This document shows, in pieces, positions 37,862 through 59,667 of a stretch of 64,000 nt of DNA. Position numbers and translations under genes: made by a program. Source of the stretch: Promethearchaeati archaeon (GTDB lineage Archaea > Asgardarchaeota > Heimdallarchaeia > Heimdallarchaeales > Heimdallarchaeaceae); NCBI GenBank assembly GCA_013166775.1, contig JABLTJ010000002.1, positions 96,001-160,000 of the forward strand, written 5' to 3'. Positions within the stretch are counted from its first letter, which is position 1; the number at the start of each line of letters is the position of its first letter. The notes beneath the pieces were generated by a model. That model ran no database searches, was not told the origin of the DNA, and was given only the letters and a program-made list of their open reading frames with translations.

Positions 37862-38362
37862 ATGAAAATGAGTACTGTCTATATTGCTTGTTCTATGATA
37901 AGATCTGTAGGAATCGATTTCTCTCTATTAGATATTTTAGAAGAGTGGATAATAAATCAGCAACTATTACCTTTTACTCCAGGAAAGATGGAAGATACAA
38001 GTCCGGATGTAATTTTCAAAAGAGATATGAAAATGTTGGAAAAATCTGATTTCATTATTGCAGACGTCAATGAACCTTCCCATGGAGTTGGGATGGAAAT
38101 CATGTATGCTTATGAACATGGAATGCCAGTTATTTGTGTACTAAACAAAGAGAACAGACCATTTTCGAGGATGGTAGATGGGAGTCCTCATGTTTACTTG
38201 ATTGAATATGAAAACAAAGAAAATCTGAAAACAAAATTAGAAAGAATCAAATTGAAAGATTTATTGATAGAATTTTGTGAAACTTGCCAGAATAGAACAA
38301 TACACTACGAGAAAGTATGTAAAAGATGTAAAAATAAAGGTAACAGCCCCAAGGCGATTTGA
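37862..38362 (+). CDS. Nucleoside 2-deoxyribosyltransferase / RCL-like N-glycosidase with C-terminal Zn ribbon
   Basis: VYIACS, IFKRD...EKSDFIIA..PSHGVGMEI.YA; CETC..CKRC. Confidence 0.8.
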   Translation: MKMSTVYIACSMIRSVGIDFSLLDILEEWIINQQLLPFTPGKMEDTSPDVIFKRDMKMLEKSDFIIADVNEPSHGVGMEIMYAYEHGMPVICVLNKENRPFSRMVDGSPHVYLIEYENKENLKTKLERIKLKDLLIEFCETCQNRTIHYEKVCKRCKNKGNSPKAI

Positions 38363-38415
38363 ACGCCTGCCTCAGGATCCAGAGTCCCGTATCCTTCCAA
38401 CTAGACTATGGGGCT
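38344..38415 (-). tRNA. tRNA-Gln(CUG), intronless, A1-U72, G73
   Basis: AGCCCCA...CGGGA-CT-CTG-GA-TCCTG...AGGCG-TTCAAAT-CGCCT-TGGGGCT-G. Confidence 0.9.
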
Positions 38416-38549
38416 TTGTTTCTTATGGTGTCTGGTTTTTACCTAAATAAAATTTTTTGGTAATAACAATTAATTGAGTCCTTAATTATAGAGATAAATT
38501 CTTAAATACTTTGTATTTTTTTACTAAATGCTTATCAAAGTGGTGAAAT

Positions 38550-39128
38550 ATGCAAGAAAAGCCACTAAAAAACAGATTTATAGCAATTTTCAAGCTTCTA
38601 AGTAAAGAGTATATTCTTCTCTCGATTTGTACTTTCTTAGTTCTTTTGGCTCTTATAATAGATCTTTTTACTTCAGTAAATTATTTCTTAACAATAGTAC
38701 TTATACTCACATGTTTCTTAGTTGGAATTTTATTAAATAAAAAAATTTCAGTAATATTTGCAAGTGTAATGATTGTTATTTATTGTTCAGCTATATTTTC
38801 GTTGTTGATGGTAAATCAGGATTTATTTGATAATTCTGATCTTGCTTCGATTATGTACAGAATAGGCGGAGGAGCTTGGGGACTTTGGGGATTGTTATTA
38901 TTCCCACCTTTTATAATAATAGGTGGTTCAACTTTTCTAGGAGCATGTATTCAAGTGATTATATTTTATTCTACAACTCCAAAAGAAGAAATAGAAGAAA
39001 AACATGTAAAAAAAATATGTCCTAATTGCCTTTCAGTTAATTCAAAAGAATCAACGAATTGTAAAAAATGTGGAAAAAAATTTCAATCAGTACAGACTAA
39101 TAGTAAAAATGATTCTTTCAATTTATAG
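38550..39128 (+). CDS. Membrane protein with C-terminal zinc ribbon
   Basis: Several TM segments then CPNC...CKKCG. Confidence 0.7.
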   Translation: MQEKPLKNRFIAIFKLLSKEYILLSICTFLVLLALIIDLFTSVNYFLTIVLILTCFLVGILLNKKISVIFASVMIVIYCSAIFSLLMVNQDLFDNSDLASIMYRIGGGAWGLWGLLLFPPFIIIGGSTFLGACIQVIIFYSTTPKEEIEEKHVKKICPNCLSVNSKESTNCKKCGKKFQSVQTNSKNDSFNL

Positions 39129-39141
39129 AAAAGAAAGGTAG

Positions 39142-39244
39142 TTGCCCCAAGGTGATTAATTCAAGGCTTCCCTCGAGAACACCTTTTTGAACACCTGTCT
39201 CTGGGATCAAATCCCAGCGTGATTGACCGCTACACTATGGGGCT
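39142..39244 (-). tRNA. Non-canonical tRNA-Gln(UUG) with 30-nt T-loop intron (39156-39185)
   Basis: Cloverleaf with CTGGG-ATTTGAT-CCCAG anticodon arm and AGGTG-TTCAAA[intron]T-CACCT; A1/A72 mismatch. Confidence 0.7.
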
Positions 39245-39335
39245 GTCGATTATTTCTTTCTATTTCTCTTGATTTCCCTATTTGGTTTTAAATCCTTCTT
39301 TTTTTACCTAGTGTTAATATAACTTGGTTTCTAGA

Positions 39336-40145
39336 TTAGGACTGAACAAAGTTCCTTACTGTATTAATAAAACTATCAAACTGTTCTCTTTGAATATTAT
39401 ATCCTGTCTGCTCATAGAGAACCCATTCACCTTCCTGAAAACTATCTTTTAATGATTGAAAATACTTCTTAGGTATAACGCCATTCTCAGCTACCATTAA
39501 TAAAATTGGGACTTTTATATAAGGTAAAACTTCTCTGTATAATACACGATCTGTTCTTAATTGTCTCAGAGAAGGTTTTTGTTTTAATTGTGCAAATTGG
39601 TATTGAGCTCTAGCCCAACTTTTCTGATCTATAATGTTCCAATCAGTATTTTGCTTCGTACTCCTCTCTATAATTTCTTCCTCAGTTTTATTTCTCATTG
39701 AACTTAACCTCATACTAAAAGCGAAATAAATCATAATCTCTCTAAAGGTTAGAGATGGTTTGAAGTTAAAAGCGGGTTCTACTAAAACGATGCCTTTAAC
39801 AAGTGGTGAATATTCTTTTGCCAATAAACTAGTGATTCTTGCGCCCATCGAATGACCTAAAATCCAAGTTTTATCTAATTCAAGAGTTTTGATAAGTTCT
39901 GCAATTTCTTGCATCATTTCATAGCTATCTATTCCTTTTGAAGAAATAGAAGACAATCCATGATTCCGAAAATCGGGCATGATTACATCAAATTCTTTCT
40001 CAAACACTTGAGCTGCTCTGGTCCAACATAGACCATTGTCTGCATAGCCATGAAGTAGAATTAAAGGTGGTTTATCCCCTCCTGTTCTAGTATAATGTAA
40101 ATTCAAGCTATTGACATTAATGTAATCTGAAGTCCAGTTGTTCAT
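39336..40145 (-). CDS. Alpha/beta hydrolase
   Basis: LLHG, PDFRNHGLS, GHSMG; the expected catalytic His position reads Tyr (TGYNIQRE). Confidence 0.85.
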   Translation of the reverse strand: MNNWTSDYINVNSLNLHYTRTGGDKPPLILLHGYADNGLCWTRAAQVFEKEFDVIMPDFRNHGLSSISSKGIDSYEMMQEIAELIKTLELDKTWILGHSMGARITSLLAKEYSPLVKGIVLVEPAFNFKPSLTFREIMIYFAFSMRLSSMRNKTEEEIIERSTKQNTDWNIIDQKSWARAQYQFAQLKQKPSLRQLRTDRVLYREVLPYIKVPILLMVAENGVIPKKYFQSLKDSFQEGEWVLYEQTGYNIQREQFDSFINTVRNFVQS

Positions 40146-40266
40146 TTTAAATCCATTAGCTGTTTTTCGTAAATAAGGTATCTGAATTAAAAATGTATGT
40201 TTTCATTTGAGTAAATCTTTAATCACATAAGGTTATTCAAGTATTTATAGAATTTTTAAGAAAAAG

Positions 40267-40373
40267 TGGCAGTCCTAGGGAGATATTTTCAGGCTTTCCT
40301 CGCAAGAAACACCTTTTGAACTCCCGGTGCCAGATTCAAAGTCTGGAGTGTTTCCAGGCTACACTATAGGACT
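40267..40373 (-). tRNA. tRNA-Gln(UUG) with 31-nt T-loop intron (40284-40314), A1-U72, G73, encoded CCA
   Basis: AGTCCTA...CCAGA-CT-TTG-AA-TCTGG...GGGAG-TTCAAA[intron]T-CTCCC-TAGGACT-G-CCA. Confidence 0.88.
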
Positions 40374-40460
40374 GTAATGTAAGTCATTCTCTTCTAATAC
40401 GATTTTAAATTTTTCTCTTTAAACTAAAAAAAATTATGGTAAAAGAAGTAATTACTCTTT

Positions 40461-42392
40461 TCAATTACTCTTTTTTGCCCATGTATCTCTTAGTGTTATT
40501 ATTCTGTTAAAGACTAAGTTTTCTTTTGTGGAATCAACTATATCAATTACAAAGTAGCCATTTCTTTCGAATTGAAATCTTGATCCTTGTTCCTTATCCT
40601 TTAGGAATGGTTCCACATAGGAGTTCAGAATAGTTATAGCATTTGGATTAAGATAATCAGTAAACTCTTTACCTTCCTCAGTTTCCATTGGATTCTCTTT
40701 TGTATACATCCTATCATATAATCTTACTTCGGCTTCTAAGGCACTATCTGCTGATAACCAATGAATAGTTCCTTGCACCTTTCTTCCATCTGGGGATTCT
40801 CCTCCTTTACTTTCGGGATCATAGGTGCAATGGATTTCAATTATATCTCCTGTTTCTCTATCTTTAACTACATTTTCACACTTTACGAAATAAGCATATT
40901 TCAGTCTGATTTCTTTTCCTGGAGAAAGACGATAATAATCTTCGGGAGGATTTTCCATGAAATCTTCCTTTTCAATATAGAGGTTTTTTGTAAAGTTAAC
41001 TTTTCTAGTCCCCATTTCCTTATCAGAAGGGTGATTTGGTACAGTAAATTCCTCTATTTTATCATTAGGGAAATTTGTGATAACAAGTTTGATTGGATTA
41101 ATTACACTCATTACTCGTGGGCATCTTTTATCCAAATCATCTCGAATGTAGTGCTCAAAGATTGACATATCTATTAGTTTATCTCGCTTAGTGAAATTTA
41201 TTGCTAATGAGAAATTACGTATAGCTTCAGGAGTTATCCCTCGTCGTCTCATACCTGCGATTGTTAACATCAATGGATCATCCCATCCTTTAACATAACC
41301 CTCTTCAACGAGCATACGTAAACGTCTTTTACTTCCCACCATATATGTGAGATTCATTTTCGCAAACTCTATTTGTTGAGGATGGAAAATAGGATTACCA
41401 TCTTCATCGTCTAGTTGATCCAAATACCAATCATAGAGAAGTCTATGGACTTCAAATTCCAAAGTACATATTGAATGAGTTATTCCTTCTATTGAATCTT
41501 CCAAACCATGAGCCCAATCATACATTGGATAAATGCACCACTTATCACCAGTATTAGGATGATGAGCATGAAGTATTCTATACACTATAGGATCTCGCAT
41601 AAGCATGTTTGGATGAGCCATATCTATTTTTGCGCGGAGAACTTTTTCTCCATCTTTGAATTCACCATTTTTCATCCGCTCAAACAAGTCAAGATTCTCT
41701 TCAATTGATCTATTTCTGTAAGGGCTTTCTTGTCCAGGTTCTGTTATTGTTCCTCTCATTTCTCTGATTTCTTCTACACTAGAATCATCTACATACGCTA
41801 AACCTTTCTTAATCAGCTGAATAGCATAGTCATATAACTGATCGAAGTAATTGGATGCAAAAAGCAATCTGTCTTCAAAATCAACTCCTAACCAACGTAC
41901 ATCTGCAGTTATAGATTCAATGAACTCCTCTTCTTCAGTAATAGGGTTTGTGTCATCGAATCTCAGATTGAATTTCCCACCATATTCCACTGCGAAGTGA
42001 TAGTTCCTATTTATGGAATAAGCATGACCAATATGTAACCAACCATTTGGTTCAGGAGGAAAACGTGTATGAACTCGACCACCATATTTGCCTGTTTTCA
42101 TATCCTCATTGATTATTGTTCGTATGAAATCGACATCCTCTTCAGTATCTTCTTCTACTTCCTCCAATAATTCTGGATACTGCTGTTGTGCTAGTTGTTG
42201 TATCTCAGATGAGTTTAATGAATTGATGTAACTAACTTTCTTAGCTACAATTGCTTTAATGTTCTCTATATCCTTTCGCAGTTCAGGATTGGATTTAGCA
42301 ATTAATCCTATAACTGCTCCAACAACTGCTTCACCATGCTCTAAAGCATTTAGAACGGTGAACTTTTCGCACAACTTTTCTAGTGATGTCAT
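40461..42392 (-). CDS. glnS: Glutamine--tRNA ligase, bacterial-type core with archaeal GluRS-like N-terminal extension
   Basis: TRFPPEPNG.LHIGH, RFDDTNP, YPMYDWAHGLEDSIEGITHSICTLEF, GRKVQGTIHW, FQFERNGYF, FNRIITLRDTW. Confidence 0.92.
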   Translation of the reverse strand: MTSLEKLCEKFTVLNALEHGEAVVGAVIGLIAKSNPELRKDIENIKAIVAKKVSYINSLNSSEIQQLAQQQYPELLEEVEEDTEEDVDFIRTIINEDMKTGKYGGRVHTRFPPEPNGWLHIGHAYSINRNYHFAVEYGGKFNLRFDDTNPITEEEEFIESITADVRWLGVDFEDRLLFASNYFDQLYDYAIQLIKKGLAYVDDSSVEEIREMRGTITEPGQESPYRNRSIEENLDLFERMKNGEFKDGEKVLRAKIDMAHPNMLMRDPIVYRILHAHHPNTGDKWCIYPMYDWAHGLEDSIEGITHSICTLEFEVHRLLYDWYLDQLDDEDGNPIFHPQQIEFAKMNLTYMVGSKRRLRMLVEEGYVKGWDDPLMLTIAGMRRRGITPEAIRNFSLAINFTKRDKLIDMSIFEHYIRDDLDKRCPRVMSVINPIKLVITNFPNDKIEEFTVPNHPSDKEMGTRKVNFTKNLYIEKEDFMENPPEDYYRLSPGKEIRLKYAYFVKCENVVKDRETGDIIEIHCTYDPESKGGESPDGRKVQGTIHWLSADSALEAEVRLYDRMYTKENPMETEEGKEFTDYLNPNAITILNSYVEPFLKDKEQGSRFQFERNGYFVIDIVDSTKENLVFNRIITLRDTWAKKSN

Positions 42393-58218: not shown

Positions 58219-59667
58219 ATGAGACCTAATATCAGTATTCTTGAAGATGATATCAAAGAAAAAGTCTTTGTTGAAGCAATGGAGATACTTGAAGAGATTG
58301 GATTCTTCGTAGAGAATCAAGAGGCTCTAGAGATTCTCCAAGAAGCAGGATTAAATGTTGATGTTGAAAAGAGGAGAGTTAAACTTCCTCCAGATTTAGT
58401 TAAGAAATCTTTACAATCCGCTCCATCGTCAATCACTCTTTTTGATAGAGAGGGTAAGGAAGTTACCAAGCTAGAAGGAGATAATATTTGTTTTGATCCA
58501 GGTTCAGCAGCGTTGAATGTTTTAGATCCAGAGACTAAGAAAATAAGAACAGCAGTAACCAAGGATTTTGTAGATTTTACAAAAGTAGTGGAACAACTAG
58601 AACATATTCAAGCTCAGAGTACTGCAATTATTTGTTCGGATGTTCCTGAAGAGGTGGGTGATAGATACCGTCTCTATCTTGCATTGATTTATTCCAAAAA
58701 ACCTATTGTTACTGGGACTTTTGCTAAAGAATCATTTGAAATTATGAAAGACATGCTTATTGCTGTCCGAGGAGATAAAAAGGAGTTAAGAAACAAACCT
58801 CTTGCAATTTTTGATGCATGTCCATCACCACCATTAAAATGGAGTGATTTAACTTGCCAAAGCATAATTGATTGTGCGAAATATGGAATACCTTCAGAAT
58901 TCGTATCAATGCCTATGACAGGTGCGAATGCTCCCGTAACATTACTAGGAGCAATTGTTCAACATGCAGCTGAGACTTTAGCCGGCTTAGTAATAACCCA
59001 ACTTGTATCCCCTGGAACTCCGGTCATCTGGGGAGGATCTCCCGCAGCTTTTGATATGAGAAAAGGGACTACTCCCATGGGATCAATAGATACTATGATG
59101 ATTGATTTGGGTTATGCTGAAATTGGCAAATATCTCAATCTTCCAACACATGCGTATCTTGGAATGTCAGATGCAAAAATACTAGACGCACAATCTGGTC
59201 TTGAATCAGGAATGGGAACCTTACTCGCAGGAATTAAAGGTATAAACATGATTTCAGGTGCAGGCATGATTGATTTTGAAACCACACAAAGCATCCAAAA
59301 AGTAATTATAGACAATGAAATTTGTGGAATGACTTACAAATTCATCAAAGGGATTATTCAACGCGATGAACCAATAGCAAAAAATCTGTTAATAGATTTA
59401 GAAGAAAGAACACATCTACTATCTCATGATCATACTCTAAAATGGTTTAGAGAAGAACAATATATTCCAAGTCAAGTGATAGATAGAGCTACAACTGAAG
59501 AATGGATAAATAAAGGAAGGAAAACAATAGGAGATAGAGCAAATGAACAAGTTAAGAAATTTCTTGATAAGTATCCAGGGGTTACACTTGACAAAGATAT
59601 TCTATCTGATATAAGTGAGATCATGAAATACAAAGGCAAAGATTTTAGAGAGAATTTAGATATATGA
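58219..59667 (+). CDS. Trimethylamine methyltransferase (MttB) superfamily protein, non-pyrrolysine
   Basis: SPPLKW, GANAPVTLLG, PGTPVIWG, DMRKG, DAQSGLES, GAGMID; no in-frame TAG. Confidence 0.9.
   Translation: MRPNISILEDDIKEKVFVEAMEILEEIGFFVENQEALEILQEAGLNVDVEKRRVKLPPDLVKKSLQSAPSSITLFDREGKEVTKLEGDNICFDPGSAALNVLDPETKKIRTAVTKDFVDFTKVVEQLEHIQAQSTAIICSDVPEEVGDRYRLYLALIYSKKPIVTGTFAKESFEIMKDMLIAVRGDKKELRNKPLAIFDACPSPPLKWSDLTCQSIIDCAKYGIPSEFVSMPMTGANAPVTLLGAIVQHAAETLAGLVITQLVSPGTPVIWGGSPAAFDMRKGTTPMGSIDTMMIDLGYAEIGKYLNLPTHAYLGMSDAKILDAQSGLESGMGTLLAGIKGINMISGAGMIDFETTQSIQKVIIDNEICGMTYKFIKGIIQRDEPIAKNLLIDLEERTHLLSHDHTLKWFREEQYIPSQVIDRATTEEWINKGRKTIGDRANEQVKKFLDKYPGVTLDKDILSDISEIMKYKGKDFRENLDI

Follow-up and report, generated by a model that had tools for sequence, protein, structure and literature searches.

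In a 64,000-nucleotide stretch of the genome of a Promethearchaeati archaeon of the family Heimdallarchaeaceae (assembly GCA_013166775.1, contig JABLTJ010000002.1, positions 96,001 to 160,000; hereafter the window), we analysed a gene for glutaminyl-tRNA synthetase (GlnRS) and three tRNA-Gln genes downstream of it. The encoded protein, P0001, is very probably a real GlnRS of chimeric origin. Judged from its sequence and genomic setting, the best explanation is that a bacterial-type GlnRS core, joined to the N-terminal domain of the resident glutamyl-tRNA synthetase (GluRS), charges native tRNA-Gln alongside the retained GluRS/GatDE route, an account that we consider probable as a whole.

According to a 2022 review, all archaea lack GlnRS, the reason given being the identity of archaeal tRNA-Gln (A1–U72, A73), which is mismatched to the bacterial and eukaryotic enzymes (PMC9499178). 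The gene itself is not new: it is annotated by NCBI, and GlnRS in Heimdallarchaeia is mentioned in a 2024 preprint, where one sentence places it beside cox genes in Hodarchaeales and Kariarchaeaceae. The literature that we searched, with subscription journals outside the search, holds no description of a GlnRS–GluRS fusion or of the tRNA linkage.

A bacterial-type GlnRS core

Positions 40,461–42,392 of the window, on the minus strand, form a single open reading frame of 643 codons plus a stop codon, which encodes the 643 residues of P0001. The protein scores 700.1 bits against the glnS equivalog model TIGR00440 (cut-off 425.8; residues 107–640 on model positions 1–524) and stays below both archaeal GluRS cut-offs, with 386.9 against 401.75 bits and 365 against 516 bits (models TIGR00463 and NF003169). 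Pfam assigns three GlnRS/GluRS domains (tRNA-synt_1c, _C, and _C2), all from residue 107 on. The closest solved relatives are bacterial GlnRS, namely 5BNZ from P. aeruginosa (668 bits) and the E. coli enzyme (653 bits); eukaryotic GlnRS structures reach about 400 bits and the archaeal GluRS 3AII reaches 222 bits.

The core comprises residues 86–643 (40,464–42,137, minus strand). It begins at a DFIR motif, the exact start point of bacterial GlnRS, and aligns end to end with the enzymes of P. aeruginosa (5BNZ) and E. coli (1GSG, 1QTQ). In the alignment to E. coli GlnRS, the HIGH motif and the counterparts of R30, Y211, C229, and Q255 in the Gln pocket are kept; the KMSKS-type motif reads VGSKR, which differs from the bacterial enzymes. 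Both bacterial tRNA-Gln recognition loops are present, the acceptor-unpairing loop (L136 replaced by I) and the G36-recognition loop (R402 kept), which Nureki et al. present as GlnRS modules (PMC2978374). It is the score above the equivalog cut-off, together with the pocket residues and the two loops, that leads us to read P0001 as a GlnRS. An earlier note on this DNA, made from the sequence alone, had described a complete GlnRS with bacterial-type motifs, and that description holds.

P0001 also exceeds the cut-off of NF011291, the model for GlnRS/YqeY fusions, with 836 bits, but the match covers only model positions 8–560 of 769. Pfam finds no C-terminal GatB_Yqey domain in P0001 (the control P0121 gives 131.9 bits) and no tRNA_synt_1c_R1/R2 match (the control P0160 matches R1 at 159.5 bits). 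The name that the Prokaryotic Genome Annotation Pipeline of NCBI takes from NF011291 for these archaeal proteins is misleading. Like P0001, the GlnRS/YqeY fusion of the Deinococcus type (2HZ7) combines a bacterial-type core with an appended domain; there, however, the addition is a C-terminal GatB_Yqey, whereas that of P0001 is N-terminal and has no detectable similarity to it.

The core belongs to a clade within bacterial GlnRS

We surveyed 83 genomes of the class Heimdallarchaeia, whose families are labelled f1, f3, f4, f5, f7, and so on. Phylogenies of the core were calculated from 106 rows rooted on Heimdallarchaeial GluRS and, with more care, from 58 rows. Within bacterial GlnRS, the Heimdallarchaeial enzymes fall into one clade (97/99) with a group that counts Dehalococcoidia-labelled proteins among its members, while eukaryotic-type GlnRS, whose N-terminal R1/R2 domains were confirmed, form a separate clade (100*). 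In line with this, the core of P0001 is about 64% identical to a Dehalococcoidia-labelled GlnRS of 562 residues and about 40–45% identical to eukaryotic-type GlnRS. One Dehalococcoidia member of the clade has bacterial genes as neighbours on a closed chromosome of 2.1 Mb. A horizontal relationship of this bacterial-type core is thus supported, and the core does not group with GluRS.

The GlnRS of f1 and f7 together are monophyletic (100/100), as are those of f5 (100/100). The tree does not order f1 and f7, f5, and the Dehalococcoidia group relative to each other. In an approximately unbiased test, monophyly of all Heimdallarchaeial GlnRS was not rejected (p = 0.41), and one and two acquisitions were not separated. 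The earlier note had also linked the enzyme to the lineage closest to eukaryotes; we found no special kinship to eukaryotic GlnRS, and an archaeal core that is itself bacterial in type tells nothing about how the eukaryotic enzyme arose.

The N-terminal domain is homologous to that of archaeal GluRS

The extra residues 1–85 (42,138–42,392, minus strand), which bacterial GlnRS lack, are homologous to the N-terminal domain (N-domain) of archaeal non-discriminating GluRS (ND-GluRS), as judged from profile and structure-sequence matches. Searched alone, residues 1–100 match archaeal GluRS only, with NF003169 at E = 1.4e-13 (positions 4–89) and residues 2–78 of the M. thermautotrophicus enzyme (3AII) at E = 1e-6. 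These matches bear out the earlier observation that about 85 residues ahead of the core, from which the peptide KFTVLNALEHGEAVVGAVIGLIAKSNPELRKD (residues 10–41 of P0001) was quoted, resemble this domain. In ND-GluRS (TIGR00463/NF003169), the homologous domain is likewise positioned ahead of the Rossmann fold; the rest of P0001, by contrast, falls below the GluRS cut-offs, and the genome has a separate GluRS (446 bits). An acidic linker follows the N-domain at about residues 78–87. The likeness to GluRS rests on profile searches: a word-based homologue search with residues 1–95 returned GlnRS N-domains only and no GluRS, and Pfam has no family for the domain.

The N-domain is present in all 22 GlnRS sequences from f1 and f7, with the conserved motif CEKYAxQNALEHGEAKVGPVM...PELRK. 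When a profile of these 22 domains was run on GluRS N-termini, the window's own family gave 58 and 51 bits and family f4, from the same order, gave 57 bits, compared with 8–27 bits for f3. The highest scores thus come from GluRS of the host's own family and order, which fits an origin of the domain from the resident Heimdallarchaeial GluRS; on sequence grounds we consider this the most likely source, as the earlier note supposed when it described the core as grafted onto a native GluRS domain.

In the AlphaFold2 model, the N-domain is helical, with four to five helices (predicted local distance difference test score 78). A Foldseek search of this model against the PDB returned nothing at E ≤ 0.001. 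Eukaryotic GlnRS (yeast Gln4, 3TL4; human, 4YE6) likewise combine a GlnRS with an N-terminal helical domain, which in yeast improves tRNA-Gln binding (PMC3333875). However, the eukaryotic domain is about 190–250 residues long and of the R1/R2 type, whereas the N-domain of P0001 has about 85 residues and no R1/R2 match, and the two cores belong to different clades. A weak alignment of the N-domain to residues 119–182 of human GlnRS (Z = 4.9) lies within noise.

Two further proteins, P0122 and P0124, have bacterial-type GlnRS cores 47–51% identical to that of the window and an N-terminal extension of about 196 residues with weak GST_C/Arc1p-like matches. Counting this GST-like N-terminus, the C-terminal YqeY of bacteria, and the N-terminal GatB-like domain of eukaryotes, the graft described here is the fourth independent domain addition to a GlnRS core.

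Three tRNA-Gln genes accompany the GlnRS gene

Three tRNA-Gln genes, here called A, B, and C, lie downstream of the GlnRS gene on the minus strand. A (40,267–40,373) is a tRNA-Gln(UUG) with A1–U72, G73, an encoded CCA, and a 31-nucleotide T-loop intron at 40,284–40,314 (58/59 or 59/60). B (39,142–39,244) is tRNA-Gln(UUG)-like, with an A1·A72 mismatch, A73, no CCA, and a 30-nucleotide T-loop intron at 39,156–39,185 that is related to the intron of A. C (38,344–38,415) is a tRNA-Gln(CUG) with A1–U72 and G73, without an intron or an encoded CCA. The three tRNA-Gln genes reported earlier on the strand of the GlnRS gene are all real, but they are not contiguous: an alpha/beta-hydrolase gene (39,336–40,145, minus strand) and an open reading frame (38,550–39,128, plus strand) stand among them. 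The cox-gene neighbourhood described in the preprint for other Heimdallarchaeia is absent at this locus, where the neighbours are the hydrolase, a NosD-like protein, and a DUF389 protein.

Gene C was found by ARAGORN and Rfam (59.8 bits with the Rfam tRNA model; 88.2 bits with our tRNA-Gln covariance model, R1). Both tools missed A and B because of the 30–31-nucleotide intron in the T-loop; after removal of 28–33 nucleotides, ARAGORN called both as tRNA-Gln(UUG), and the covariance model scored them at 69.6 and 64.0 bits, respectively. At the splice sites, a relaxed form of the bulge-helix-bulge motif can be drawn, with a 4-bp helix (TTCA/TGAA) between an AAA bulge and a 5-nucleotide bulge, and in the minimum-energy fold the intron hairpin lies between two loops. 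Introns of this type also occur in genomes G012 and G004 and in one f3 genome. In relatives, an orthologue of A, intronless or similarly interrupted, stands directly after the GlnRS gene; syntenic intronless orthologues were found in G013, G020, G001, and G010. Linkage of GlnRS to tRNA-Gln genes extends to all three GlnRS-bearing families (f1, f7, and f5).

The A1–U72 pair and the archaeal introns, as well as the closeness of these tRNAs to the tRNA-Gln of Heimdallarchaeial families in which no GlnRS was found, indicate that the tRNA-Gln genes of the window are native archaeal genes, not imports. The suggestion that the synthetase was installed together with its tRNAs, in the sense of a co-transfer, is consequently not supported. 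The setting of the enzyme differs from that of bacterial GlnRS, in that the host is archaeal and its tRNA-Gln has A1–U72 instead of U1–A72 and mostly A73.

A fourth gene, D, encodes an unlinked tRNA-Gln(UUG) on contig C64 of the same genome (positions 952–1057), with a canonical intron, A1–U72, A73, and CCA. We rejected the idea that D sits on a contaminant contig, as C64 has the GC content of the genome and shares an 85-base overlap with contig C33; no copy is present in genome G007. In the whole genome (3.85 Mb, 89% complete), ARAGORN found only 30 tRNA genes, and probably many of its tRNA genes carry non-canonical introns that standard tools do not see. In relatives, tRNA genes with D-loop introns were observed (loci L036, L078, and L089).

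Variation of the discriminator base

The discriminator base differs between these genes: the linked A and C have G73, while the linked B and the unlinked D have A73. In family f5, all GlnRS-linked tRNA-Gln (a UUG and CUG pair) have G73, and these genomes encode further tRNA-Gln with A73 at other places. In f7 and most of f1, tRNA-Gln has A73, and G73 appears on the CUG tRNA in one subclade of the window's genus. These patterns make an adaptation of position 73 to GlnRS suggestive, not diagnostic. Two further features were noted in the survey. One tRNA-Gln(UUG) of family f7 (L087, G072:C41:228195–228273) has U73, the base typical of eukaryotic tRNA-Gln, and many Heimdallarchaeial tRNA-Gln have G12:C23, given in the review as the eukaryotic state.

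A third, aberrant tRNA-Gln-like gene

In several relatives, a further tRNA-Gln-like gene, which we call X-type and to which B belongs, sits in the GlnRS cluster with the UUG gene on one side and the CUG gene on the other. Besides B, copies were located at L052:2229–2302 (genome G043), L019:10105–10179, L020:5593–5667, L023:5676–5750, and L022:11900–11976, and the type was found in some f1 genomes only. The stems are intact, and the anticodon loop is aberrant, taking the form of a 6-nucleotide UUUUGG or UUUAGG, a 9-nucleotide loop, or, in the L052 copy, a UUA anticodon with U37. The A1·A72 mismatch of B recurs in the copy of G043. Changes in the T-stem between X-type copies are compensatory, which suggests that the structure is under selection.

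Distribution of the fused gene and retention of the indirect route

GlnRS was found in 42 of the 83 genomes, single-contig genomes included; in four further families, with 18 genomes in all, it was not found. The form with the N-domain (a frame of about 655 residues) occurs in f1 and f7, and f5 has a form without it (about 580 residues). In NCBI, the GlnRS proteins of the survey are labelled Heimdallarchaeaceae or Heimdallarchaeota. Another full-length, N-domain-bearing GlnRS (P0032, 66% identical, on a 220-kb contig) has the NCBI label Candidatus Bathyarchaeia; either the bin is mislabelled or the gene was transferred once more between groups of archaea. Counter to the textbook rule, a bacterial-type GlnRS has thus persisted and diversified in around half of the Heimdallarchaeia genomes surveyed, a natural experiment in the adjustment of a foreign synthetase to the tRNAs of its host.

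The check for gltX, gatD, and gatE that the earlier note had called for found all three in the genome of the window: the archaeal GluRS, GatD, and GatE are encoded in intact frames, and no GatB was found. Across the class, gatE is present in 80 of the 83 genomes, GlnRS holders included. Since GluRS, GatD, and GatE are all retained, direct charging, as predicted from gene content, is an addition to the indirect route and not a replacement. We also observed that the GatE of the window's family (own copy C76:100333–102123) scores 375–410 bits on TIGR00134, compared with 530–650 bits for most of the remaining families; in f7, gatE is present as two copies, at about 640 and about 430 bits, and f5 falls into groups at about 550 and about 340 bits. 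These differences may reflect paralogues or accelerated evolution.

Origin and role of the chimeric enzyme

In the account that we prefer, the core (residues ~86–643) would have reached the archaeon by horizontal transfer, as its recent ancestry shared with the GlnRS of Dehalococcoidia-labelled bacteria suggests. The first ~85 residues would have been taken from the resident GluRS and placed, as in GluRS, immediately ahead of the Rossmann fold by a single fusion event in the ancestor of the f1 and f7 GlnRS. The fused enzyme would attach glutamine directly to the native archaeal-type tRNA-Gln encoded beside its gene, in parallel with the retained GluRS and GatDE route. We infer that the graft and, in some lineages, a change to G73 adapt the bacterial enzyme to the tRNA-Gln or the partners of its archaeal host. 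That the N-domain itself acts in tRNA binding or adaptation is a tentative assignment, to which we give somewhat less than an even chance.

Several observations weigh against this account. Within the clade, the tree does not show whether the gene passed from the Dehalococcoidia group to Heimdallarchaeia or the other way. Judged from its sequence, the N-domain is not basic, and neither Pfam nor hhalign detects a likeness to the tRNA-binding GatB/YqeY modules: in hhalign, the N-domain profile reached a probability below 1% against 15 C-terminal GatB_Yqey extensions of bacterial GlnRS and the GatE of the same genome. A wide fold search (VIA) with the N-domain model yielded nonspecific helical matches only (Z ≤ 6.2). 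G73 is also present in three genera of f3 (L063–L067; G034, G035, G040), a family in whose 12 genomes no GlnRS was found, and hence need not be an adaptation to GlnRS. Finally, because GatDE is retained throughout, GlnRS may be an auxiliary rather than the main route.

The absence of a detectable GatB/YqeY likeness is what one would expect if the grafted domain were a protein-docking module for the partners of archaeal GluRS (GatDE or a synthetase/EF1A complex) and not an aid to tRNA binding, and the disorder of the domain in the GluRS crystal reported by Nureki et al. (PMC2978374) would fit this too. The same study, however, labels GluRS residues 1–85 'YQEY', which implies kinship with tRNA-binding tails, a kinship that our searches did not confirm; and the literature covered places no GluRS interaction surface on these residues. 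We regard docking as rather unlikely. Only slightly better placed, and still on the unlikely side, is a division of labour in which GlnRS serves the linked tRNAs, with G73 or a weakened 1:72 pair, and ND-GluRS with GatDE serves the unlinked A73 tRNA-Gln. The contrast between the linked A, B, and C and the unlinked D in the window's genome fits such a partition, as does that between the linked G73 pair and the A73 tRNA-Gln elsewhere in f5, where the enzyme has no N-domain. The near-universal retention of gatE argues for a continuing need, and, according to the review, GatDE reads A1:U72 and the D-loop and bacterial GlnRS uses G73 (PMC9499178). Yet most GlnRS-linked tRNA-Gln of f1 and f7 have A73, the f3 genera make G73 compatible with the indirect route, and the association carries no statistical weight, since one event in evolution, or a few, would account for each pattern.

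The X-type genes raise a different question, namely whether P0001 is a housekeeping GlnRS at all or charges aberrant RNAs for recoding or non-ribosomal use. Their occurrence in several relatives with intact stems, an odd anticodon loop or the A1·A72 mismatch, and compensatory T-stem changes would be in keeping with this; we nevertheless think it improbable, given that normal UUG and CUG tRNA-Gln are conserved neighbours of GlnRS in all three families, that only some f1 genomes have X-type genes, and that the enzyme keeps its anticodon-recognition loops. A composite of these ideas is less doubtful than that, though unlikely too: the coexistence of two Gln-tRNA routes, each with tRNAs partly its own, a GlnRS barrier crossed in two ways (by the graft of the resident GluRS N-domain in f1 and f7 and by the change of linked tRNAs to G73 in f5), and a fast-changing X-type gene whose product would be a GlnRS-charged RNA used in recoding or in some function apart from normal decoding. 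Vertical descent from an archaeal ancestor of eukaryotic GlnRS, as a GluRS duplicate that kept its N-domain without any bacterial import, would explain why the domain sits as it does in archaeal GluRS, and the class does hold the closest known relatives of eukaryotes, according to a preprint (10.1101/2024.07.04.601786). It is very unlikely in view of the much higher identity of the core to Dehalococcoidia-labelled than to eukaryotic-type GlnRS, the nesting of the core in bacterial GlnRS apart from the eukaryotic clade, the lack of the N-domain in the sister family f5, and the families in which no GlnRS was found. Least credible of all is an assembly chimera or bacterial contamination of the bin, which the data refute. 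The assembly does consist of 115 contigs with an estimated contamination of 4.5%, but the gene lies on a 218-kb contig, its GC content (0.354) is near that of the window (0.327), and the fused gene with its tRNA-Gln neighbours recurs, in two families, in dozens of independent assemblies, including closed genomes of 3.1–3.3 Mb.

A methyltransferase gene elsewhere in the window

Apart from the GlnRS cluster, the window contains an MttB-family methyltransferase gene at 58,219–59,667 on the plus strand (Pfam MTTB, 299 bits), with an uninterrupted frame and no in-frame TAG. Within it, Rfam reports a PYLIS_3 match of 47.8 bits at 59,164–59,263, which probably reflects homology of the coding sequence rather than a pyrrolysine signal.

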